Of a stretch of 64,000 nucleotides of DNA, positions 1 through 11,035 are shown in pieces (the first letter of the stretch is position 1; each line of letters opens with the position of its first letter). Under the pieces are notes generated by a model. That model searched no databases and was not told the DNA's origin. It was given only the letters and a program-made list of their open reading frames with translations. The position numbers and the translations under genes are program-made. Source of the stretch: Candidatus Thorarchaeota archaeon (lineage in GTDB: Archaea > Asgardarchaeota > Thorarchaeia > Thorarchaeales > Thorarchaeaceae). The stretch spans positions 36,127 to 100,126 of the forward strand of contig JAFGAR010000005.1 in assembly GCA_016933575.1 (NCBI GenBank), read 5' to 3'.

Positions 1-897
1 CAGATTGACATTGTTCTTCAAAATGAGATCAAGTATCTTGTTGATGATGTTAGTATTTCTTTAGAAGAGATTAGAAAGCTTGATCGGGTGACCCACTTGG
101 TCATCCAGGCGATTGGAAAATCTCATGAGAAACTTCCGCTGCATGAGGAAAAGTATCCAGTAGAGATTCGATTCAGTTATGGTACATGTGATACTTGTGG
201 AATGTTAAGTGGAGGGTATTATGAGGTCACTCTTCAAATCCGTGCAGATGGTCGAGAATTAAATGACACAGAAAGAAGAGATATTGAAAAATTAGTGACC
301 AATATGACTGTTGCAAAATACACTTCTGATGACAAGGCCTTTGTAACCAGTATGACCGAGGACAAATATGGTCTTGACATTCTAATTGGGTCTGAAAACC
401 TTGGCAAGACTATAGCTGACGAACTTGAAGCTCGATACCTTGCTGAGCGCAAGGAAAATTACAAGCTAATTGGGGAAGATAAGACTGGGAAGAGGAAATA
501 TCGCATAACGATACTGATTAGACTTCCTCGATTCTCTGTGGGCGATTTCGTTCTAGTGGATGAACGACCTTGCCAGATACTTGCAATGACCAGGAATAAT
601 CTCACATGCTTCGACTTGAAGAGCAGAGCACGCTTCACCATGAATCCCCAGAGTGCACGTTGGCGGACATTGCAGTTTTTAACCCCTCAGTCTGAAAGTC
701 GTGAGTTTATGATCGTCACTCATGTCTACGGGCAACCCGTCCAGATTATGGACTCGACAAACTTTGTAATCACTTATGTGGATGAAGATCTGTTCGAGGG
801 TGAAATAAACACTGGAAGTAAAATTTTTGGAGTCGTCTTTGAAGATAGACTGTACTTACTACCTACTCAAAATCAGAACAACGAGAACGAGGTGTGA
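1..897 (+). CDS. nmd3: NMD3-family ribosome biogenesis protein (5'-truncated by window edge)
   Basis: Frame open from base 1; CDTC...GGYYEVTLQIR motif, KLIGED...RKYRITILIRLP; canonical position upstream of aIF-1A/rio1. Confidence 0.85.
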   Translation, partial: QIDIVLQNEIKYLVDDVSISLEEIRKLDRVTHLVIQAIGKSHEKLPLHEEKYPVEIRFSYGTCDTCGMLSGGYYEVTLQIRADGRELNDTERRDIEKLVTNMTVAKYTSDDKAFVTSMTEDKYGLDILIGSENLGKTIADELEARYLAERKENYKLIGEDKTGKRKYRITILIRLPRFSVGDFVLVDERPCQILAMTRNNLTCFDLKSRARFTMNPQSARWRTLQFLTPQSESREFMIVTHVYGQPVQIMDSTNFVITYVDEDLFEGEINTGSKIFGVVFEDRLYLLPTQNQNNENEV

Positions 898-1001
898 GAA
901 AGGCTATTGACTCAATCAATTCGGTACTCTTAAATGTCTCACTTCCGAATCAAGATTAATCGCTACAGGACTTTGGTCCAGCGGTTTACCGGAGGAATAT
1001 T

Positions 1002-1331
1002 TTGTCCTATAAGAAACGTGGTGGTCAACCACCTACAAGTCCAACCGAACCCATGAGAGTCAGGACTCCAAATAAGAACGATGGAGAGATGTTTGGAATA
1101 ATAATTCAGATGCTAGGTTATGATAGAGTCCGAGTTAGATGCGAAGATGGTAACATAAGAGTTGGTCGTATTCCTGGTCGTATGAAAAAGAGGGTTTGGA
1201 TGAGAGTTGGTGACACGGTTCTTCTTGTCCCTTGGGATTTTCAAACCGAAGAGAAGTGTGATGTCATATACCGATATCGTGGAAATGAGCTAGATTGGCT
1301 TGAAAAACGCGGAATTCTCAAGATGTTTTGA
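1002..1331 (+). CDS. eif1a: translation initiation factor aIF-1A
   Basis: MLGYDRVRVRCEDG..RIPGRMKKRVWMRVGDTVLLVPWDFQ signature; TTG start after GGAGG. Confidence 0.97.
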   Translation: MSYKKRGGQPPTSPTEPMRVRTPNKNDGEMFGIIIQMLGYDRVRVRCEDGNIRVGRIPGRMKKRVWMRVGDTVLLVPWDFQTEEKCDVIYRYRGNELDWLEKRGILKMF

Positions 1332-1392
1332 TGAAGCTAAGCCTTTTCTGAAATCTGCATATTACTAATGTAGATGAATATACCTACATACA

Positions 1393-2199
1393 TTGGGATG
1401 GCATTATCAATTGAAGCGAGCAGAGAAAGAATACGAACGGTATCAGTCTGAGTTGGATAACCGCAGAATGAAACGTCGTAAGGATGTGGATGAATTCAAA
1501 GTAGTAGAAGGTGTCATCGATCCTCCCACCTTGAAAATTCTCTATAAACTTCTGAATCGCGGTATTATCAAGGCTCTACATGGAGCAATCAGTACAGGAA
1601 AAGAAGCAAACGTGTATAGGGGAATTGATAGTGATGATCATCCTGTTGCTGTGAAAATCTATCGGGTCAGCACAGCAGAGACTGATTTCATGTTAGAATA
1701 CATCATCGGAGATCCTAGGTTCAAGAAAGTAAAACGCCAGAGTCGAGCTTTGATTCCCCAATGGGCTATGAAAGAGTTCGTTAATCTCAAACGCTATCAT
1801 GGCGCAGGTATTCGCGTTCCAAGACCTATTGATATTGAACGAAATGTGTTGATCATGGAATTCATAGGCGATGTTGAACAGACTCTTCCGGCTCCTCTCC
1901 TGAAGAATGTTGAAATTCCATCCCCTGTAGACACATTCAATGAGATAATTGACATGATTGAAAGAGGATATACAAAGGCAGAGCTAGTGCATGCAGATCT
2001 CAGTGAATATAACATTCTTTGGGACAATGGTCCTGTCTTCATTGATGTTTCTCAGTCTGTTCTCCTCACCCACGGTAATGCCAAAAAGTACCTCCTCCGT
2101 GATATTCAAAACATAACTCATTTCTTCACGAAACTTGGTGTAGCAACTGAAGACCCTGAGAATATTGCCCGACAGATTATTGCAGAAGGTGTGAGCTAA
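1393..2199 (+). CDS. rio1: RIO1 serine/threonine kinase
   Basis: ISTGKEANVY, AVKIYR, LVHADLSEYNIL, IDVSQSV motifs. Confidence 0.96.
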   Translation: MGWHYQLKRAEKEYERYQSELDNRRMKRRKDVDEFKVVEGVIDPPTLKILYKLLNRGIIKALHGAISTGKEANVYRGIDSDDHPVAVKIYRVSTAETDFMLEYIIGDPRFKKVKRQSRALIPQWAMKEFVNLKRYHGAGIRVPRPIDIERNVLIMEFIGDVEQTLPAPLLKNVEIPSPVDTFNEIIDMIERGYTKAELVHADLSEYNILWDNGPVFIDVSQSVLLTHGNAKKYLLRDIQNITHFFTKLGVATEDPENIARQIIAEGVS

Positions 2200-2200
2200 A

Positions 2201-2767
2201 TTGGCATTCAAAGATATCATTAGAGTTCCCCAAGACAGAATTGGTGTAATCGTCGGACGTAATGGTAAGGTACGAAAAAGAATAGAAGAATTGACTAATG
2301 TCAAACTCGACATAGACTCAGAAGGCATAGTGACAATCAGTAGTCCATCTGGCACAGAAGATCCTATTCTAGCATGGAAAGCAAGAGATATTGTTCGAGC
2401 AATCGCAAGGGGCTTTAGTCCAAAGAATGCCATGACTCTCATAGATGAAGACGCAATGCTGCTTGTAATTTCACTTCGTGATGTTGTTGGCACATCTCCT
2501 AATCAGATAAAACGGGTTGCAGGGAGAATAATTGGTGAGAATGGTAGGACCCGACGAGTGATTGAACAGGTCACAGAGACCAAACTTGCAGTCTATGGCA
2601 GAACTATTTCTATTATTGGAATGAATCCTGGACTTGATTACGCTCGCAGAGCTATTGACATGTTAATTGCTGGAGCACCACATAGTGCTGTATATGCCAG
2701 GCTCGAGAATATGCGTCGTGACATGAACCGTCAACGAGCAGAACTGTGGGAGGAAACAGACCTCTAG
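2201..2767 (+). CDS. KH-domain pre-rRNA processing protein (Dim2/Pno1/Krr1 family)
   Basis: Two KH GxxG motifs (IGVIVGRNG, GRIIGENGRTR), AIARGF; conserved rio1-KH-top6B order. Confidence 0.93.
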   Translation: MAFKDIIRVPQDRIGVIVGRNGKVRKRIEELTNVKLDIDSEGIVTISSPSGTEDPILAWKARDIVRAIARGFSPKNAMTLIDEDAMLLVISLRDVVGTSPNQIKRVAGRIIGENGRTRRVIEQVTETKLAVYGRTISIIGMNPGLDYARRAIDMLIAGAPHSAVYARLENMRRDMNRQRAELWEETDL

Positions 2768-2815
2768 CTATCTGTGTAATACCCCGTCTAATATCGCAAG
2801 TTCTCGAATACACTC

Positions 2816-4342
2816 TTGAGCAACATGAACCAAAAGACACCTCTTGAAACAACGTTTGGCAGTATCTCTCCAGCTGAGTTTTTCTACAGAAACCGGCAGA
2901 TGGCAGGTTTTGGCAACTCTAGTCAGGCCGTCTATTCAACAATAAGAGAACTCGTGGAGAATAGTCTAGATTCGTGTGAAGATGCAGAAAGATATCCTGA
3001 CGTCCATATCAGAATCTCATGTGAAGAGTCTGACATTCTCTCAGTTCGTGTTGCTGATAATGGAACTGGTGTCCCTGCTGAATATGTACCAGAAGCTTTT
3101 GGAAAAATTCTCTTTGGCAGTAAATATCATGAACGACAAAGACGAGGCACGTTTGGACTTGGTGTGACGATGGCAGTCCTTTACGGACAAATTACTGCCA
3201 ATTCTCCAGTTCTTATCCACACGAGAAGTAGAAATACAAGTGGTACGGAATATACACTCTTCATTGATGTCGAATCAAACGAACCTCTGATAGAAGCAAC
3301 CAACCTCCAAGAAAGAGAATATGAAGGAACAACGATCACACTTAGAATTCAAGGTGATTTGAAACGTGTTCAAGAGCGTATTGTTGAATATCTGCGTCTT
3401 ACTGCAGTATCTACACCCCATTCAAAAATCTCACTAGATATAGATGGTTCAGAAACTATCGAATTCGGAAGATGGTCTAATGAGATTCCACCCCTTGTAC
3501 TGAGTTCAAAGCCACACCCTCGAGCCGCAGATTTGGAGTTGTTACGCCGTTTCATGCAAAGAGTAGGCAACAAACGGCTGCAAGATTTCTTAATTGATTC
3601 ATTTCAGAAGGTTGGTGTGAAGACATCTACGCGCTTTTTGAGGTTCATCTCGTTCGATCCGAACCAAGAAACTAACACATTGACGAGGGATGATTTGAGT
3701 CGAATCAGTGAAGCACTACGTAAGTATGATGACTTTGAGAGTCCAGACCCAAGAAGTCTAAGTCCTATCGGAAAGAGTCCTATCATTGATGGATTGAATT
3801 CGACATTCAACGTTTCAAATATTCACTATTCCATTCGTCCCCCCTCTGAGTGGCAAGGAAATCCATTCATTGTAGAAGGCGCAATTGTTCTCAGTGATGA
3901 CTTCGCACGTTCTGAGATTCCAACTCTCTATCGTTTTGCTAATCGTGTCCCCCTTCTATACGACTCCAGTGAAGATGTCATGACAAAGGCACTGAAACGA
4001 ATTAACTGGAAACGATATACCATAGGTGCATCTTCTCCTGCTGCTCTCTTTGTTCATTTGTGTTCCACTCGAATTCCTTACAAAGCCGCAGGAAAACAAT
4101 CTATTGGTACAATCTCAGAAATCGAAAATGAGCTTCTATATCTGTTCAAAGAACTGGGTCGTAGATTCAATAAAGGGCTACGGAAAGAACAGAGATCCGT
4201 CCGTGAATCTAAGAAAATGCGTGAATTTGCTAGGACTTTCAGGAATCTCGTGAAATTTAGTGCAGATCTCGCTGATTTTGAAGGAATCCCGAAGACTAGT
4301 CATCTAATACAACAACTATTCGAGGTCGCCTCTGATGAATGA
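2816..4342 (+). CDS. top6B: DNA topoisomerase VI subunit B
   Basis: ISPAEFFYRN, RELVENSLD, DNGTG, RGTFGLG GHKL motifs; RFANRVPLLY transducer. Confidence 0.95.
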   Translation: MSNMNQKTPLETTFGSISPAEFFYRNRQMAGFGNSSQAVYSTIRELVENSLDSCEDAERYPDVHIRISCEESDILSVRVADNGTGVPAEYVPEAFGKILFGSKYHERQRRGTFGLGVTMAVLYGQITANSPVLIHTRSRNTSGTEYTLFIDVESNEPLIEATNLQEREYEGTTITLRIQGDLKRVQERIVEYLRLTAVSTPHSKISLDIDGSETIEFGRWSNEIPPLVLSSKPHPRAADLELLRRFMQRVGNKRLQDFLIDSFQKVGVKTSTRFLRFISFDPNQETNTLTRDDLSRISEALRKYDDFESPDPRSLSPIGKSPIIDGLNSTFNVSNIHYSIRPPSEWQGNPFIVEGAIVLSDDFARSEIPTLYRFANRVPLLYDSSEDVMTKALKRINWKRYTIGASSPAALFVHLCSTRIPYKAAGKQSIGTISEIENELLYLFKELGRRFNKGLRKEQRSVRESKKMREFARTFRNLVKFSADLADFEGIPKTSHLIQQLFEVASDE

Positions 4343-5387
4343 TATTGCTCAAGCAAATCGTAAACTCTGTGAATTAGGTCACAGAATTCTCGAACCCATT
4401 CTTGATGATAAATTCCCTATCATTGAGATTCCAGATAGGAACACAAGTAATATCGAATATGAAACCAGTCGTAATCGATTCGTGTTAGGTTCATCAGTTA
4501 CTATCAGGGACTCCAGTAATATCAAACATATCAGAAGTTTTGCACAACTTGCATGGGTAGCCTCTTTTGCAAAACGGCTTTTAGCAGCCTCACGAACAAG
4601 TTCTCTTCGTGATGTATACTATTCCAGCGAAGCCTTTGGTGTAAATTTCAAGGACCAAGCGGAATCTGATCGAATAGTGTTGGATTTGGAGTGTATAACT
4701 GGGCTTTCCCGAGAATCCTTTGGTATATTTCCAGACGAACATTCTTCTGTCTATGGAGATGTTCAGATGAGGTATACAGTCCCAGGGTATAGTGGCCGTG
4801 AGATTGACTTAACTATCAGTCCAGATGGACTTCCTATTGGTCCTGCACTAATGACTGCTGAACCAATCCGGACAAATGCAGAGATAATCCTAGCTGTGGA
4901 GTCTGGAGGTATGTTCTCTCGTCTTATTGAAACCAGGGCTTGGGAGCGATTCAAAGCTATATTGATTCAACTTGGTGGTCAACCACCTCGTGCAACTAGG
5001 AGTCTAATACGGACTCTGCATGATGAATTAGATCTTGCTGTGTATATATTCACTGATGGTGATCCCTGGGGAATGCACATAGCCCGTGTTATCATGTCTG
5101 GCAGCGCAAATTCTGCTCATATTGAAGGCTTAACTACGCCAACAGCAAAATGGATTGGAGTCACTTCTCAAGACATCGAACACTATTCTCTCCCCTCCGA
5201 AAAGATGAGTGATTCTGACCTCAAACGGCTCGATGAGCTCTCAAGAGACCCTCGATATTCTAGTAAGGAGTGGCAAATGCATATTGATGGTTTCAGAAAA
5301 CTCAGAGAAAAGGCTGAACAACAGGCATTTAGTAGATATGGAATGGATTTTGTAGTAGATACATACCTACCTGAGAAATTGGTCTAG
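4335..5387 (+). CDS. top6A: DNA topoisomerase VI subunit A
   Basis: SLRDVYY catalytic Tyr motif, TOPRIM FTDGDPWG, KAEQQA. Confidence 0.95.
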   Translation: MNDIAQANRKLCELGHRILEPILDDKFPIIEIPDRNTSNIEYETSRNRFVLGSSVTIRDSSNIKHIRSFAQLAWVASFAKRLLAASRTSSLRDVYYSSEAFGVNFKDQAESDRIVLDLECITGLSRESFGIFPDEHSSVYGDVQMRYTVPGYSGREIDLTISPDGLPIGPALMTAEPIRTNAEIILAVESGGMFSRLIETRAWERFKAILIQLGGQPPRATRSLIRTLHDELDLAVYIFTDGDPWGMHIARVIMSGSANSAHIEGLTTPTAKWIGVTSQDIEHYSLPSEKMSDSDLKRLDELSRDPRYSSKEWQMHIDGFRKLREKAEQQAFSRYGMDFVVDTYLPEKLV

Positions 5388-6439
5388 ATCCAGCCAACTC
5401 CATGTGGGTATCCAATCAGTAGTAGGAGCACTGCACCATAGACTAAGATTGCTTGTAACAATAGCAAGATTTGGACATTTCTCTTTTCTGTCATATCTTT
5501 GAAGAAATGTGGCAATATCCAATAGACTGTAAATGGACCAACCACTTCCAATGAGCCATCTTCTCTTGGTTTAGCAAACTTAACCCATTGCATTTGTTTT
5601 CGCTTTGCGTAAAATCTATAGACGATATAGAGGAGGAAATTGAGTCCAAATGGGATATACATGATTATAGCAAGCCTATCCATATTTCCAATGATAAGGG
5701 CTGCTGCCATTGTTGCGCCCATAGGTAAAGTCCCTACGTCTCCAGTCAATATCTTTGCTGGATATCTATTAAAAATCAAGAAACCAATTGAAGCCCCTAA
5801 CAGGGCTGCGGCTACGACTCCTGCCTCCATCTGTTCAGTAGTTATTGTATGACTATCAAAATAGGGTATAAGGAGAACGAATGTAACAAGTCCTGAGGCA
5901 TTAATGGCACTCAGTCCAGCCTCAAGTCCATTCATCCCCGCATACATATTGGTTGAATCAATGATGAATGTCATCATGAGGGGAACAATTAGAAGTGCAT
6001 AGAATAGTCCGAAATTGATAGTCCCAATGAATGGAATTGATATTGTTGGTGTTCCTACACTCATGGCTGCCATTGGTATGGATGCAACCAATGGAAGCAC
6101 GATTTTCGTTCTATTCTTGAAATCCAAGTTATCATCCAAGAGTCCAATCATCCCCGCCATTAGGATTGAAACCAAAGCGGCGAATAATCCTACCATCTCG
6201 ATCTCAAGACTCTGGAAGGTTGTCAACCCAATAATAACAAGCAACGCAAAGACAATTGCAAAGAGGATGACATATCCTCCTCCTTTTGGTATCTCAGGTC
6301 GATCTAGCTTATGAACATCAGTCCCAGTGACACCCTTTTCCTTGAGGATTTTTATCGCATTAGGTGTAAATAGCACAACGACAATAAACGACACAATAAT
6401 GGCGATTAGTATTTCCAGCAAACCTTCACACCTATTCAC
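5384..6439 (-). CDS. UDP-GlcNAc:dolichyl-phosphate GlcNAc-1-phosphotransferase (GPT/ALG7/AglH-like, MraY/GT4 family)
   Basis: ~10 TM helices; G.DVHK..P.IP..GG, GLLDD, NMYAGMNGLEAG, FNRYPAKILTGDVGT; exact start uncertain. Confidence 0.88.
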   Translation of the reverse strand: MNRCEGLLEILIAIIVSFIVVVLFTPNAIKILKEKGVTGTDVHKLDRPEIPKGGGYVILFAIVFALLVIIGLTTFQSLEIEMVGLFAALVSILMAGMIGLLDDNLDFKNRTKIVLPLVASIPMAAMSVGTPTISIPFIGTINFGLFYALLIVPLMMTFIIDSTNMYAGMNGLEAGLSAINASGLVTFVLLIPYFDSHTITTEQMEAGVVAAALLGASIGFLIFNRYPAKILTGDVGTLPMGATMAAALIIGNMDRLAIIMYIPFGLNFLLYIVYRFYAKRKQMQWVKFAKPREDGSLEVVGPFTVYWILPHFFKDMTEKRNVQILLLLQAILVYGAVLLLLIGYPHGVGWI

Positions 6440-6609
6440 TCAAAACCAATCAGTACAGTTTTGACCTTTTCGGACAGGGAGCAAGTTCGTGCATGCTTTC
6501 AACGTCCGAAATCTATTTTAACGAACCCGAAGCTCGAGCGCATCATCCATGCTCTAGTGGACCCACCACAAACATGGAGATTTACCCCAATCAAACACGG
6601 TGATTTGCT

Positions 6610-9597
6610 TTGAGCCAAATGAACAAACGGATAGGGACAATCATACTGCTAGCTCTCGTAGTGACAAGCAGTATTCTTGCACTGAGCCCCATCTCAGATA
6701 CAACAGAAAATAACTACATGGTTCAGAAAATTGATAATGGATTTGCCTTGGCTGAGTCATCGATGAACATATCGATTCCATATGTAGACAATCACTATGG
6801 CTCCGCAGATGGATTAATAGATCCCACAGAGTATGCTTATCATTTTACAGATCCAGTGACTGGGGTTAAATCATATTTTGAGCACAACGGTACAATGTTA
6901 TTCGTAGGTCTTGAAGCCCTGACTCACGGTTGGATTGGGTTTGCTTGGCAGAACTATACCTCTAATTTCACAACCGCTGGTCTGAATAACAGTGATGTTA
7001 TTGTTGGATACGCTCCTGGTACAACTACTACAAATGTATGGCGCGTTATAGGCACAGATGCTGTGACTGTACATTATGTTCTAAGTCTTAGAAATGGTAC
7101 AACAATCCAAGACGGATTTGTCCCCGATGAGACCTCTGTTGATCCAATTGAGGAAGCTGGAGTCTTGCAAGCCTATAAGGATGCAATCATCGGCATGAGA
7201 ATTGGAGAAGTTCGACACTTCGTCATTCCTGCTGCTGACGCATATGATACATCTGGTCATGAGCTCTATGGACAAGACCTAATCTATGATATCACTCTGA
7301 CACGCATCTACAGGTCTGGAATCACGAGGACACTTGACCCTACAGATCAGAGCCTTATTATCTACAGTGATGAACATGGTACAAACACCTTCCAACATCT
7401 TCCTGATGCTGATCAATCCCAGATTATTCAAGCCGACGGTTCTGATAATGGAACAATAACGCAGCTTGAATATATCATTAAACTGAACAGTACAGACCCA
7501 TATGACATCCCTCTGTTCAACAATACAGATTTGACATATCCCTTCATCTTTATGTATGGCCTTACTGAAGAACTCAATGGACTTCCTGTTCAACATACAT
7601 ATTGGACAAATCCCGCCAAAGTTCAGATTGTACCCAACACCCCTCCTACAATGGTAGTTATTTCTCCTGAGGCTGATTCAACAATCCAATGGGTTTCTAC
7701 ATTGAAGCTTAATGCTACAAATGACTATGTGAGACGAGCTTTCTATCAAGTAGATAATGAAACCTGGGAAACTTTGACATACAATTTCCTTACAGATCTC
7801 TGGGAGAAGAGCGTTGATTTCTCCTTATACGATGAGGGTTTGCATGTACTAAGTTTCAATGCATCCGATACATCAAACGCAACGGGTCTTGTATCGTTTA
7901 ATTTCACCATTGACCGACCATACACGCCATTGCTGGGTATGAAATTGAGAGTAACTCGAAATCTCATAACGATGCCAAACTTCGGTAGTAGAGCTGAAGA
8001 TAGCTATGTTGTTACTAATAACGGGTCAGCTCCAATCAATTCAATAGACATATACCTTCCTGACGAGTATGAGTCCAATATTCTTGATTTTGTAGTAACA
8101 GATAGTAGCGGTGGTACTGAATTCCCTGCCATTAGGCTATCAAATGCAAATGGACTGGTACGCTGGAGAGTACACTTTCCAGACCCTGTTGGATTCCAAG
8201 AATCTCTCTCATTTAAGACAATAACATACCTACACAGTTTGTTCTATCTGACGGATGAAGATACATTTGAATACCGAATCTCTTTCATTAGATATCCGAT
8301 TCTGCCATATGTACTTACCAGCGCAGAGTTCACTCTCAGTTTCGAATCAGGAGGTTCTCTAGTTCCAAACGAACCATCTCCTAACTTGAAAGAAACAAAC
8401 GTCGCACCTTATACAACATCACCATTCTCTGTATTGCTTCGATTATTCACAGAGAACATCATTGCCAGACGTACTACTACAATCGTTGTAGATGCGTGGG
8501 GCTGGTTATCCTATGAAGAAGTAATCTCATTAGAAAATACAGGCGGTGGTGAAGTAGTTACACTTCCAATGACACTACCTGCATACTCCGCATCAATTCG
8601 GATTTACGACGAAGTAGGTGATTTGGCTTCATCCCAGACACAGCCGGGAGTAACAACTGCTGACTATAACGAAACACGACAGCTGGAAATAAAATTGGCA
8701 ACGGATCGATTTGGACCGAATGGATTCCAGCCCTCGTTCAAATATACATTCAAGATCTCTTATGTCGTTCAAGCAAGCGCTTACCAGAGTGCAGCAACTG
8801 GTGGAAGTCTGCTCGAGTTTCCAATGGCTCTTCTAGGCGATGTCCTGATTCTTGTGCATGATATCAAAATTGTCATGACTACATCAGTTCAAGCATTTGA
8901 CATCGCAGAAGGTCACCATATAATGTACGGAGTCTTTGATACCTCCTACCTCTATGAATATACCAACGAAACACAACGAAATCCTGCAGAACTCTATGTC
9001 GTATACCAAACCACCCTCGGAGCTGCTGCAAGACCTGCTCTGTTCTCGCTGATAATTGGAATTATCGCAGCATTGTATGTTTCATATAGAAAAGTGGAGC
9101 TACCTGAGGAGGTTGTTGGTCCTCATATCGATGACACTGATATTTATCAAAAACCAAAACAGGTTGGAGCCCCTGCAGATCTTCTATCTGAGTTTGCTAA
9201 TCTTTATTCTCGAAAGACCACTCTTAACATAGATTTGGAGAAACTTGATGCCTCCAGACGAAGAGGGAAGATAAAGAAGCGCGAATATATGATGCGTGAG
9301 AGTGACCTGAAAGCACAGATCGAAGAGATTGATAAGAAACTGCCCTCAGTCAAGGAAGAACTAACGCGCTACGGAGCAAGATACCGGGATCTCATTGCAC
9401 AGTTAGAGCTTCAGGATGAGCGGATAGAAGGTGCAAAAGCTGGTCTTCGTCAACTCCTCATGCGAAAGAAGAAGCAGAGGATTAGTCGAGTTGCTTTTGA
9501 AAAGTCCCGTCAAGATTACTTGAAGACAATCCAGAAAGCAACAAGTGCTACAGACAGAATTCTGCTCTCAATTCAGGAAGAAGCCGGAGAAGCCTAG
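6610..9597 (+). CDS. Secreted, membrane-anchored ribophorin I (RPN1/OST1)-like protein with N-terminal DOMON-like domain containing an inserted FKBP-type PPIase domain, and an Ig-like domain
   Basis: Signal peptide; DOMON motifs GWIGFAW..SDVIVGY / LEYIIKLNSTDPYD; FKBP motifs VTVHY..AIIGMRIGEVRHFVIPAADAY..GQDLIYDITL; ribophorin-like RTTTIVVDAWGWLSYEEVISLENTG..IYDEVG; single TM near aa 810-826; helical C-terminal tail. Confidence 0.7.
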   Translation: MSQMNKRIGTIILLALVVTSSILALSPISDTTENNYMVQKIDNGFALAESSMNISIPYVDNHYGSADGLIDPTEYAYHFTDPVTGVKSYFEHNGTMLFVGLEALTHGWIGFAWQNYTSNFTTAGLNNSDVIVGYAPGTTTTNVWRVIGTDAVTVHYVLSLRNGTTIQDGFVPDETSVDPIEEAGVLQAYKDAIIGMRIGEVRHFVIPAADAYDTSGHELYGQDLIYDITLTRIYRSGITRTLDPTDQSLIIYSDEHGTNTFQHLPDADQSQIIQADGSDNGTITQLEYIIKLNSTDPYDIPLFNNTDLTYPFIFMYGLTEELNGLPVQHTYWTNPAKVQIVPNTPPTMVVISPEADSTIQWVSTLKLNATNDYVRRAFYQVDNETWETLTYNFLTDLWEKSVDFSLYDEGLHVLSFNASDTSNATGLVSFNFTIDRPYTPLLGMKLRVTRNLITMPNFGSRAEDSYVVTNNGSAPINSIDIYLPDEYESNILDFVVTDSSGGTEFPAIRLSNANGLVRWRVHFPDPVGFQESLSFKTITYLHSLFYLTDEDTFEYRISFIRYPILPYVLTSAEFTLSFESGGSLVPNEPSPNLKETNVAPYTTSPFSVLLRLFTENIIARRTTTIVVDAWGWLSYEEVISLENTGGGEVVTLPMTLPAYSASIRIYDEVGDLASSQTQPGVTTADYNETRQLEIKLATDRFGPNGFQPSFKYTFKISYVVQASAYQSAATGGSLLEFPMALLGDVLILVHDIKIVMTTSVQAFDIAEGHHIMYGVFDTSYLYEYTNETQRNPAELYVVYQTTLGAAARPALFSLIIGIIAALYVSYRKVELPEEVVGPHIDDTDIYQKPKQVGAPADLLSEFANLYSRKTTLNIDLEKLDASRRRGKIKKREYMMRESDLKAQIEEIDKKLPSVKEELTRYGARYRDLIAQLELQDERIEGAKAGLRQLLMRKKKQRISRVAFEKSRQDYLKTIQKATSATDRILLSIQEEAGEA

Positions 9598-9693: not shown

Positions 9694-10566
9694 ATGTCCC
9701 TAAGAGTGATAGTTATGAGTACTCCGACCATCGACCGTGAATCAATCAGAGCACGAGATCTAATACCTGATGAATCTAAAGCCCTTGAGATGTATCAATA
9801 TCTGACCGGCTCACCCAGGGTGCAATCATATCTGCGAACTGCAAATAGAATGGCTGTATCCAGATTAGGTTATACTGACCATGGCCCGGTCCATGCAGAG
9901 GTAGCTAGTTGGAACGCACTCAAGGCATTTGCTATTATTGAAGATACTTTCAAACCGAATATTGTAGCTGAAGGTATTGGGGACCTTGATGACGCACGTC
10001 TGGTTGTTCTCGCATCTACCTATCTCCATGATATTGGTATGGTTGTGCATCGCAACGAGCATAATCAAGCAGCAATACAGCTAGCCAGTCCAATTCTTGA
10101 ATCAAAACTGCTGGATATGTATGGCGACCCTGCAAAGGCCACTGATATCCTCTCATTCATCTTTCATGGCATCTACGCTCATGATGATGACACGCAATGT
10201 CTTACACTTGAAGCAGGAATCACTAAGATTGGTGATGGTTGCGATCTAACCAAGGGTAGGACGATTGTGCCATTTCAGCAGGGAAAGGTGGATATCCATT
10301 CAGTTTCAGCAATGGCTATCAATAGTGTAATCCTTGAGAAAGGGACTGAAAAGCCACTTCAGATTACCGTTGCAATGGATAATCCTGCAGGAGTATTCCA
10401 GGTTCAGGCAGTACTTGAGAAGAAATTATCCACTTCAGGTCTCAAGGACCACGTTGATATTGATGTTGAAGTCAATGGTGAGCGACTTGTACTCTCTCAT
10501 GTAAAGCGTCTCTTCAGAGTACAGATGACAGAATCTGACAATGGTCTCAGTGTCAAAGAAAAATAG
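9694..10566 (+). CDS. HD-domain metal-dependent phosphohydrolase (archaeal COG3294-like)
   Basis: RLGYTDHGPVH, YLHDIG, DGCDLTKGR, DIHSVSA. Confidence 0.88.
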   Translation: MSLRVIVMSTPTIDRESIRARDLIPDESKALEMYQYLTGSPRVQSYLRTANRMAVSRLGYTDHGPVHAEVASWNALKAFAIIEDTFKPNIVAEGIGDLDDARLVVLASTYLHDIGMVVHRNEHNQAAIQLASPILESKLLDMYGDPAKATDILSFIFHGIYAHDDDTQCLTLEAGITKIGDGCDLTKGRTIVPFQQGKVDIHSVSAMAINSVILEKGTEKPLQITVAMDNPAGVFQVQAVLEKKLSTSGLKDHVDIDVEVNGERLVLSHVKRLFRVQMTESDNGLSVKEK

Positions 10567-10642: not shown

Positions 10643-11035
10643 ATGATAGATATTGGAGAAGAGGACACTCCTGAAGGCACTATAATTGATACTGGAAAAG
10701 AACCCTGGTTTGACGCACTAGGCAGTGTAATGTTTCTTCTCTGGGCTATTTTTGGAATCTCAACAACTACAATTTTGATTAATTCGCCATCGACTGTATT
10801 TCTAGGTTGGATTGGAGTACCATATGTAGCAAATGGATTACTATGGCTCGTCTTTCGAACAACCAACTCTCGTATATTTCTGACAATCATTGGACTTGTA
10901 GGATCACTCTATTCAATAGCCTTCTGGGGCTATAACGAATCACTACTTGCTTACCCCATGGGTCTCTTTGCTACGCTTCTGTTATGTACTTGTATAGGTA
11001 CTCTCTGCATGCGGGGATTGACCTGGTTTGAATGA
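10643..11035 (+). CDS. hypothetical membrane protein (4 TM)
   Basis: Four hydrophobic segments; fills gap between HD gene and tRNA. Confidence 0.6.
   Translation: MIDIGEEDTPEGTIIDTGKEPWFDALGSVMFLLWAIFGISTTTILINSPSTVFLGWIGVPYVANGLLWLVFRTTNSRIFLTIIGLVGSLYSIAFWGYNESLLAYPMGLFATLLLCTCIGTLCMRGLTWFE

Follow-up and report, generated by a model that had tools for sequence, protein, structure and literature searches.

The cytosolic helical bundle of human ribophorin I (RPN1) binds ribosomes. The cytosolic domain of OST1 from the Asgard archaeon 'Ca. Prometheoarchaeum syntrophicum' MK-D1, a Lokiarchaeon, also binds ribosomes (PDB 8WHN; PMC11417166). Ordinary Asgard OST1 proteins are encoded in frames of about 560-690 aa, in which the ribophorin fold directly follows the signal peptide. 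Human FKBP11, an FKBP with one membrane pass, associates with the ribosome-bound OST-A translocon; structural work on the human translocon shows its pocket buried by CCDC134, and the authors doubt that it isomerizes nascent chains and propose an adaptor role (PMC12804085). Here, we describe a gene from the analyzed window (a stretch of 64,000 nucleotides from a Candidatus Thorarchaeota contig) that encodes an OST1 with an FKBP domain nested in an N-terminal DOMON domain. We found no description of such an FKBP-in-DOMON-headed OST1 in the literature.

The 995-aa protein consists of a signal-peptide-like N-terminus, a DOMON domain split by an FKBP domain, an Ig-like domain, two luminal OST1 domains, a TM helix and a four-helix bundle (Table 1). 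Its TTG start codon and a Shine-Dalgarno sequence (GGTGAT, 5 nt upstream) are kept in six lineages. The protein has no cysteine, and its 17 sequons lie exclusively in the ectodomain; 13 of these are each retained by 24 or more of the 30 homologs. An initial annotation had recognized the signal peptide, the DOMON domain with its FKBP insert, the Ig domain, the ribophorin region, the TM helix, the tail and the sequons, and this observation is confirmed throughout. Long-form homologs number 223, span about 940-996 aa and are labelled Thorarchaeota by their sources.

Table 1. Features of the headed OST1 gene and its divergent neighbor (positions in the window)
Feature	Residues	Nucleotides	Strand	Basis
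AglH/ALG7(DPAGT1)-like GT4, candidate UDP-GlcNAc:dolichyl-P GlcNAc-1-P transferase		5384..6439	-	PF00953, 4.6e-30
Shared divergent intergenic region		6440..6609	.	Six-lineage alignment; TATA-like TATTTTAA, inverted repeat TTTCGGA...TCCGAAA, SD GGTGAT
Long-form OST1/ribophorin I, 995 aa		6610..9597	+	ORF; TTG start kept
Signal-peptide-like segment (predicted)	1-28	6610..6693	+	Basic n-region and ~18-residue hydrophobic core read in translation
DOMON N-terminal half	51-140	6760..7029	+	DGxIDPxEY and GWIG motifs, Leu125; AF2 and VIA-wide Z 12-15
FKBP-type domain in DOMON sandwich loop	141-238	7030..7323	+	Pfam FKBP_C; Foldseek; VIA
DOMON C-terminal half	239-344	7324..7641	+	Sub-threshold Pfam DOMON; fold matches cover both halves
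Ig-like domain	345-436	7642..7917	+	Pfam Big_7 in homologs; VIA
OST1 luminal core, two beta-sandwich domains	437-803	7918..9018	+	Foldseek, VIA, PF04597 in homologs
Single TM helix	~804-828	9019..9093	+	AF2 helix 807-826; aligned inside RPN1/Ost1 matches
Cytosolic four-helix bundle	853-995	9166..9597	+	AF2; 8whn_A profile; VIA

Homology and fold show that the C-terminal 560 aa form a complete OST1 with two luminal beta-sandwiches, a TM helix and a basic cytosolic four-helix bundle. The best eight Foldseek matches of the ribophorin region are RPN1/Ost1 throughout (1e-28 to 4e-19; the ninth match is at 6e-11), and comparison of aa ~436-835 with human RPN1 and yeast Ost1 by VIA yields Z values of 27-31, as had been expected for aa 445-830. 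A profile of aa 436-840 retrieves ordinary OST1 proteins of ~560-620 aa, and Pfam PF04597 matches 9 of 30 homologs (best 9.6e-10). The preceding Ig domain is matched by Pfam Big_7 in 10 of 30 homologs (best 6.4e-11), and its aa 344-437 resemble the Ig-like domain of 6tn6 (VIA Z 13.6, rmsd 1.9 Å). The cytosolic tail, rightly called helical in the initial annotation, was undercalled there: against the ribosome-binding domain of the Prometheoarchaeum OST1 (8WHN) it gives a VIA Z of 17.2 and an rmsd of 2.1 Å over 141 of 142 residues at 22% identity, and a profile search against 8whn_A gives an E value of 3.2e-7. No other part of the protein is as conserved as this bundle (80% mean pairwise identity, 43% invariant columns). 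The source genome has one OST1 copy, and OST1 occurs once per genome in 26/26 sampled members of its family. The earlier term "ribophorin-I-like" thus described the fold correctly but was too cautious, because the protein is the single OST1 ortholog of its genome.

The OST1 gene lies 170 bp from a divergent 351-aa ORF, whose product matches Glycos_transf_4 in Pfam and has human DPAGT1 (1.2e-16) and then MraY (1e-11) as its nearest solved relatives. The previously noted adjacency to this ALG7/AglH-like gene is conserved, and the head-to-head arrangement is kept in 7/7 relatives examined and in genome G112. In two of three other Asgard contigs, the GT4 gene adjoins a short OST1 in a different arrangement. 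The conserved blocks in the intergenic region may have a regulatory function; an Rfam search of this region matched no family. STT3 and an OST3/6-like gene are both located on contig C21. Does the protein work outside OST, as an independent cell-surface protein that reuses ribophorin-like beta-sandwiches? The separate location of the STT3 and OST3/6 genes and the failure of PF04597 to match the 995-aa sequence itself are in line with such a role. However, the protein is the sole OST1 homolog in each of 27 family genomes, including the source, it still has its TM helix and the bundle of the ribosome-binding type, and its gene is accompanied by that of the GlcNAc-1-P transferase in all seven relatives. 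We therefore regard a function outside OST as highly improbable.

The exoplasmic head of ~410 residues, which comprises the DOMON domain, the nested FKBP and an Ig spacer, was gained in one Asgard order. All sampled genomes of the family (26/26) and the one genome of the sister family (1/1) carry the long form. Complete heads are restricted to these two families and always share a frame of ~950-1030 aa with the OST1 core; one frame of head and OST1 in the first family reads 1233 aa. Elsewhere in the phylum, OST1 has the ordinary length given above, and other families yield at most DOMON-alone or FKBP-alone matches. Among 5.8 billion proteins, we found no stand-alone head other than partial gene calls. 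Mean pairwise identity is 70% in the N-terminal DOMON half, 61% in the FKBP and 62% in the C-terminal DOMON half, whereas it is 48-50% in the OST1 luminal domains; the head is the more conserved part, and purifying selection acts on it more strongly than on the OST1 core. Restriction of the head to a single Asgard order marks it as a lineage-specific accretion and not an ancestral proto-ER feature, and the proto-ER interpretation of the initial annotation is not supported.

An AF2 model of aa 40-346 (pLDDT 81.9) served as the basis for fold searches of the head with VIA and Foldseek. In VIA, DOMON/CBM9-fold matches reach across the insert (model residues 4-307), with Z values of 15.3 for EbdC, 14.3 for NxrC, 13.6 for the dopamine beta-hydroxylase DOMON, 12.7 for CBM9 and 11.9 for the CDH cytochrome. 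The N-terminal half aligns in hhalign with uninterrupted Pfam-DOMON proteins of other Asgards (97% probability, 33-37% identity), and the alignment stops at the insertion point. A sub-threshold Pfam DOMON stretch lies at model residues 225-270 and is matched by 20 of 29 members at E<=5 (best 4e-6).

What does the DOMON sandwich bind? The top structural matches, EbdC and NxrC, are heme-b subunits, and His329 is nearly invariant and present even in the divergent P0130, as would suit a heme-b-binding extracellular redox module. However, Leu125 (GLNNSD) occupies the position of Met/His in the uninterrupted Asgard DOMONs and is at least 90% conserved, which bears out the original argument against heme, and Met315 and His263 are lost in P0130. 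Searches for porphobilinogen synthase gave no match in the source genome, 15 congeners or G112, whereas a control was found in 11 of 14 genomes; this absence is a weak point because genomes G025 and G102, which encode Met/His-bearing DOMONs, also lack the enzyme. A heme-binding head is thus extremely improbable. The leucine makes a sugar-binding role possible, and the DOMON domain could be a lectin for N-glycans or lipid-linked sugars that combines glycan sensing with proline isomerization and OST docking, in a primitive glycoprotein quality control similar to that of malectin and ribophorin I. CBM9, a sugar binder, belongs to the fold family, D/E/N/Q/W/Y are frequent among the invariant residues of the two DOMON halves, and the protein itself bears its 17 mostly conserved sequons. 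Nevertheless, sequence searches with this protein matched no lectin or CBM family, Z values hardly differ between heme-type and sugar-type members of the fold, and DOMONs that are ligand orphans exist, such as that of dopamine beta-hydroxylase. A lectin function is accordingly quite doubtful.

The insert is an FKBP in both sequence and fold, as had been anticipated. Pfam FKBP_C matches aa 149-230 (nt 7054-7299; E 4.4e-9, 37 bits against a cut-off of 21.1), in agreement with the earlier placement at ~7057-7308, and matches 30/30 homologs. Residues 102-199 of the head model (141-238 of the protein) match FKBPs with VIA Z values of 8-10, Foldseek matches the model to FKBP13 at 1.4e-5, and the structural relatives include FKBP13/FKBP2, SlyD and FKBP11. 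The genome encodes four FKBP domains, and only the OST1-borne one resides on an exported chain. All 30 homologs share the pocket residues Y26, W59 (as Y), Y82 and F99 (as Y), and 22/30 have the H87 equivalent. Other FKBP12 pocket positions are altered and fixed, namely D37 to Q (29/30), F46 to S (30/30) and F36 to I/L/V, and the insert scores 37-42 bits against FKBP_C, compared with ~130 for the small FKBPs of the same genome. Given these fixed substitutions and the low score, catalysis may be weak or lost. Since FKBPs do not rely on a strictly required catalytic residue, the substitutions leave activity possible. The FKBP could alternatively be a non-catalytic adaptor whose pocket holds one particular protein partner or an OST/S-layer segment, with the head as a translocon scaffold. 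In line with this, the substitutions are fixed and the pocket aromatics are strictly invariant despite the weak FKBP_C match, and FKBP11, with its buried pocket, provides a precedent. However, the substitutions are compatible with activity, and no candidate partner is evident; the conserved gene downstream of OST1 encodes a cytosolic HD-like protein. We consider an adaptor unlikely.

We propose that the head of this thorarchaeal OST1/ribophorin I ortholog probably places an FKBP-type foldase or holdase at the translocon. The gene product would be an accessory subunit of the STT3/AglB oligosaccharyltransferase beside the Sec translocon, with its tail docking the translating ribosome and its core docking OST. 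The head would position an FKBP-type prolyl isomerase or holdase, which needs no ATP, immediately outside the membrane, at the exit of secreted and glycosylated nascent chains, and aid their co-translocational folding. The heme-less DOMON domain may provide a ligand- or substrate-binding surface or else a rigid platform. The GlcNAc-1-P transferase gene, whose product would make the first lipid-linked intermediate, may share its regulation with OST1 via the conserved promoter region between the two genes. A folding helper has thus likely been built into the site of secretion and glycosylation via an FKBP spliced into the DOMON domain of OST1.

Members of the DOMON/CBM9 superfold (PF03351; EbdC 2IVF_C, DBH 4ZEL_B, CBM9 1I82, CDH 1D7C) have in common an 11-12-stranded beta-sandwich, which in the thorarchaeal protein is interrupted by an entire FKBP domain and carries Leu in place of Met/His. 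Human RPN1 (8B6L, 6S7O) and yeast Ost1 (6EZN, 7OCI) are alike in the fold of the luminal domains and TM helix, and human RPN1 also in the cytosolic bundle, which yeast Ost1 lacks; both share 13-16% sequence identity with the thorarchaeal protein and lack any head of DOMON, FKBP or Ig type. The MK-D1 OST1 is alike in its luminal domains, TM helix and basic bundle, and each protein is the sole OST1 of its Asgard genome. The thorarchaeal form differs from such ordinary OST1 proteins by its additional N-terminal residues, found in one order only.

The bacterial PpiD and PrsA are membrane-anchored periplasmic PPIase chaperones at SecYEG that are ATP-independent and tethered to the trans side of Sec, and the head would follow the same logic. 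However, PpiD and PrsA are separate proteins with a parvulin fold, not an FKBP fold, and have no link to glycosylation. Human FKBP11 (PDB 9N9J/9YGY; PMC12804085) places an FKBP on the exoplasmic/luminal side next to OST, as here, and likewise combines a membrane anchor with a basic ribosome-contacting cytosolic element; its FKBP fold matches with Z 9.3. This analogy, the closest one, cuts both ways because the FKBP11 pocket is buried and an isomerase role is argued against. FKBP11 is a separate, dynamically recruited single-pass protein, whereas the thorarchaeal FKBP is covalently nested in OST1, and the likeness between the two is most likely convergent.

OST1-long, the 995-residue protein encoded in the window, is an OST1/ribophorin I ortholog that carries a conserved exoplasmic head with an FKBP inserted into a DOMON. 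Ribophorin I/OST1 is a eukaryote-signature translocon protein that is also present in Asgard archaea, and its role past ribosome docking is debated. Structural modeling and sequence profiles indicate that the C-terminal 560 residues of OST1-long constitute a complete OST1/ribophorin I. In a Foldseek search with an AF2 model of residues 340-995 (pLDDT 82.2), the best eight matches are exclusively human RPN1 and yeast Ost1 (1e-28 to 4e-19), and the first match beyond them is an integrin at 6e-11. VIA-align superimposes residues ~436-835 on RPN1 29-464 and Ost1 25-474 with Z 27-31. In the model, the core has a pair of luminal beta-sandwich domains of the RPN1/Ost1 fold; a single C-terminal TM helix and a cytosolic four-helix bundle follow. 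The tail (residues 853-993) overlays the MK-D1 OST1 structure 8WHN with Z 17.2 and an rmsd of 2.1 A over 141/142 residues, and the sequence profile of the OST1-long family also matches 8WHN (E 3.2e-7). 8WHN shows the cytosolic domain of OST1 from Prometheoarchaeum MK-D1, a four-helix bundle that pulls down ribosomes like the human RPN1 domain (PMC11417166).

Pfam Ribophorin_I (PF04597) matches neither OST1-long itself nor any protein in a scan of its own genome, and it matches 9/30 close homologs (best 9.6e-10). We read this miss as a false negative of PF04597, since OST1-long is recognized both by its fold and by profile searches. A profile of residues 436-840 retrieves 160 proteins, mostly of ~560-620 aa, in which the ribophorin fold starts directly after the signal peptide; it reaches these ordinary OST1 proteins at 1e-25 and below. 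Three such short OST1 proteins were fetched, and the Pfam Ribophorin_I match is clear in two and faint in one. The homologs of OST1-long are named Thorarchaeota by their sources. The genome of the window, a Thorarchaeota-type Asgard MAG (85.5% complete), also encodes STT3/AglB and an OST3/6-like protein, whose genes lie ~3.5 kb apart on one contig (Table).

Table. Coordinates of the features discussed. Positions refer to the window unless an individual locus or contig (L) or the genome of the window (G000, contig C21) is named; f14 and f22 are Asgard families.
Feature	Position	Strand	Description
GT4 gene	5384-6439	-	ORF, AglH/ALG7 (DPAGT1)-like candidate; head to head with OST1-long, 170 bp apart
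Intergenic conserved block	within 6455-6609		GTTTTGACCTTTTCGGA
Intergenic ~55-nt block	within 6455-6609		TATA-like TATTTTAA and inverted repeat TTTCGGA...TCCGAAA ~35 nt apart
Intergenic conserved block	within 6455-6609		Shine-Dalgarno sequence and TTG start
OST1-long	6610-9597	+	ORF, 995 aa
HD-like protein gene	9694-10566	+	290 aa, soluble; PF01966 weak (E 0.0024)
STT3/AglB (L001)	G000:C21:22039-23283	-	926-aa frame; contig separate from OST1
OST3/6-like gene (L009)	G000:C21:26837-27151	-	162-aa frame; contig separate from OST1
Short OST1 context (L019)	4868-7980		OST1, then directly GT4 and a GT1/GT2/epimerase cluster
Short OST1 context (L020)	427-2610		Sec61-beta as divergent upstream neighbor; Trm112 and GT4 downstream
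Uninterrupted DOMON protein (L021)	1258-2430	+	390 aa, one DOMON; other Asgard family
Uninterrupted DOMON protein (L022)	1149-2864	+	571 aa, two DOMONs and a weak CDH-cytochrome match
Membrane FKBP, f14 or f22 (L024)	854-1591	+	~210-260 aa
Membrane FKBP, f14 or f22 (L025)	765-1481	-	~210-260 aa
Membrane FKBP, f14 or f22 (L026)	899-1576	+	~210-260 aa
Membrane FKBP, f14 or f22 (L027)	705-1466	-	~210-260 aa
Further membrane FKBPs, f14 or f22 (L028-L030)			~210-260 aa

The N-terminal 435 residues of OST1-long are an added head, which an Ig domain (Big_7; Z 13.6) joins to the OST1 core. Pfam FKBP_C (PF00254) matches residues 149-230 at 37 bits (cut-off 21.1), and it matches 30/30 aligned homologs. 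FKBP folds are also retrieved with the AF2 model of residues 40-346 (pLDDT 81.9) by Foldseek and VIA (TMt 0.68-0.71, Z 8-10), and FKBP2/13, SlyD and FKBP11 match model residues 102-199 alone, which correspond to residues 141-238 of the protein. By both family model and fold, the insert belongs to the FKBP-type family, with a predicted PPIase activity. DOMON/CBM9 folds span both flanking halves of the same model (EbdC, Z 15.3; NxrC, 14.3; DBH DOMON, 13.6; CBM9, 12.7; CDH cytochrome, 11.9), which identifies a beta-sandwich of this type. Because the DOMON matches span both flanks and the FKBP matches are confined to residues 141-238, the model places a whole FKBP within a loop of the DOMON sandwich. 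With the domain split by the insert, Pfam DOMON (PF03351) scores 20.1 bits in OST1-long against a cut-off of 32.7, and it gives a sub-threshold match in 20/29 members at E<=5 (best 4e-6). DOMON-N shares 33-37% identity (hhalign probability 97%) with DOMON proteins from other Asgard families that have no insert and lie above the Pfam cut-off, and the hhalign alignment ends exactly at the FKBP insertion point.

What ligand might such a DOMON bind? Leu125 of DOMON-N (>=90% conserved) stands in a column that we take to be the axial heme ligand position of DOMONs, so that this half would lack the axial Met or His. The initial annotation had already noted an apparent Leu in GLNNSD in place of the Met of heme-type DOMONs and favored a sugar-binding role, and the alignment supports a heme-less domain: Leu125 aligns with Met in L021 and with His in L022. 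A heme role of the DOMON, whose fold matches include the CDH cytochrome, is unlikely. Porphobilinogen synthase was found in none of 17 genomes of the order, and this argument against heme is weak because the enzyme is also undetectable in two genomes with Met/His-type DOMONs (those of L021 and L022). It is possible that the DOMON instead serves as a lectin in glycoprotein quality control. CBM9 is one among several tied fold matches of the DOMON, and no lectin or CBM family in Pfam matches the head at E<=5. Profiles of each DOMON half against the PDB gave chance matches or none, so that ligand residues are not mappable on a solved DOMON.

The FKBP pocket was assessed by mapping the FKBP12 positions (Y26, F36, D37, F46, V55, I56, W59, Y82, H87 and F99) via alignment to FKBP2. 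Tyr is retained at Y26 and Y82 and replaces W59 and F99, each in 30/30 homologs; H87 persists in 22/30, and Leu stands in place of I56. D37 is replaced by Gln in 29/30 and F46 by Ser in 30/30, and F36 gives way to aliphatic Ile, Leu or Val. Judged from these residues, the pocket appears conserved but non-canonical, which makes binding likely and catalysis possible. Scored with the profile of the insert, the small FKBPs of the window's genome reach 21-24 bits, Asgard FKBPs with a membrane anchor 35-47 bits, and a soluble 112-aa FKBP from the sister family 51 bits.

Mean pairwise identity across 30 homologs is 70/61/62% in DOMON-N/FKBP/DOMON-C, 80% in the cytosolic bundle, 51% in the Ig domain and 48-50% in the OST1 luminal domains. 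At 61-70%, the DOMON and FKBP parts of the head exceed the luminal domains; the head is more strongly selected than the OST1 core and is no decaying baggage. OST1-long contains no cysteine and 17 sequons, every one exoplasmic and mostly conserved. In our sample of 150 genomes of the phylum, each of the 26 from the family of the window, and the sole genome of its sister family, has the OST1 core once, in a ~950-1030-aa frame, apart from one frame of 1233 aa and one truncated by a contig break. The complete head occurs, in-frame with the OST1 core, only in these 27 sampled genomes and in the window's own, which has no second OST1. OST1 frames elsewhere in the sample are ~560-640 aa, and those of two families checked with PF04597 are ~680-690 aa. 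A word-based search of 5.8 billion proteins found a DOMON with a nested FKBP nowhere outside OST1-long, and, as stand-alone heads, nothing but incomplete gene calls for that protein. Two homologs that resembled short forms of the query (P0123 and P0125) were rejected as truncated or mis-started gene calls. A full-text literature search found no published description of an FKBP-in-DOMON head on an Asgard ribophorin.

The divergent GT4 gene matches PF00953 at 4.6e-30 and is closer to human DPAGT1 (1.2e-16) than to MraY (1.1e-11), and its scores against the NCBIfam models of MraY fall well short of the cut-offs. It thus groups with GPT/AglH (ALG7, DPAGT1), as a candidate for that substrate specificity; JGI annotates its homologs as dolichyl-phosphate GlcNAc-1-P transferase. 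The order TopoVI-A, GT4 (-), OST1-long (+) and a ~285-aa HD-like gene (+) is kept in 7/7 relatives, including the divergent lineage of homolog P0130 and G112. Among three short-OST1 contigs of other Asgards, GT4 lies directly downstream in one and 1.4 kb downstream in a second, whose OST1 has Sec61-beta next to it on the upstream side, and it is absent from the third. The OST1-GT4 link predates the head, because GT4 is also found near short OST1 genes. The HD-like gene directly follows OST1-long in 7/7 relatives and G112 (PF01966 at 22.1 bits in the G112 ortholog), even where farther synteny differs. Beyond it, the window holds a 130-aa hydrophobic ORF (10643-11035, +) that matches no family. 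This ORF may be no gene, because in relatives that place is taken by Trm112 on the minus strand or, in a single case, by an acetyltransferase gene. Upstream of GT4 (1-5387) lie NMD3, eIF-1A (in relatives), RIO1, a KH protein (PNO1/Dim2-like) and topoisomerase VI B and A; the block is conserved in relatives, and its ribosome-biogenesis genes adjoin the translocon gene.

The GT4/OST1 intergenic region (6455-6609) is conserved far above what the 50-60% identity of the OST1 proteins in the compared lineages would lead one to expect, and it has no Rfam match. Six lineages share the TTG start of OST1-long and the GGTGAT Shine-Dalgarno sequence that precedes it by 5 nt. The conserved blocks may form a shared bidirectional promoter/operator or a 5' UTR element. 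A sigma-70/terminator scan was set aside as uninformative for an archaeon.

How might the head act at the translocon? The tail would dock the ribosome, the core would dock OST, with STT3/AglB as its predicted partner, and the head would present chains that emerge from the translocon with a prolyl isomerase or holdase that needs no ATP. We propose, with low confidence, that Thorarchaeia may have built a working foldase into the OST/Sec translocon, possibly together with a DOMON that senses glycans or substrates; ribosome docking, glycosylation and proline isomerization or holding during translocation would then be coupled in one chain. If so, the head would be the first dedicated exoplasmic folding factor linked to N-glycosylation in archaea. 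Because the natural fusion puts an FKBP on OST1 under selection stronger than that on the core, it offers genetic evidence for a functional coupling of assisted folding and N-glycosylation at an archaeal translocon. As a compact, cysteine-free and expressible module of about 300 aa, the head is suited to direct biochemistry. It is confined to one order, which is not the order closest to eukaryotes, and thus bears on the way translocons gain accessory factors, not on what the eukaryotic ancestor contained.

The nearest functional analogy to the head is human FKBP11 at OST-A. This single-pass FKBP uses a basic cytosolic helix to join Sec61/OST-A translocons that have a ribosome bound; in the structure its pocket is buried by CCDC134, and the authors of that work favor an adaptor role (PMC12804085). 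For this reason, a non-catalytic adaptor role of the FKBP is kept as the main rival to the foldase reading. Other Asgard families, f14 and f22, encode membrane FKBPs that share the topology of FKBP11: a hydrophobic segment at the N-terminus, then the FKBP domain, a C-terminal TM helix and a tail in the cytosol. In the four that were scanned (L024-L027), the FKBP domain lies above the Pfam cut-off. The f14 tail is rich in Cys and resembles a zinc ribbon; the f22 tail is basic and ends in RRRR. A separate OST1 in a ~680-690-aa frame is also present in 4/5 checked genomes with such FKBPs. The FKBP-on-OST1 fusion parallels the recently described human FKBP11/OST-A translocon, and if the foldase reading is true, OST1-long would represent an independent, covalent solution to the task of FKBP11 at OST-A.
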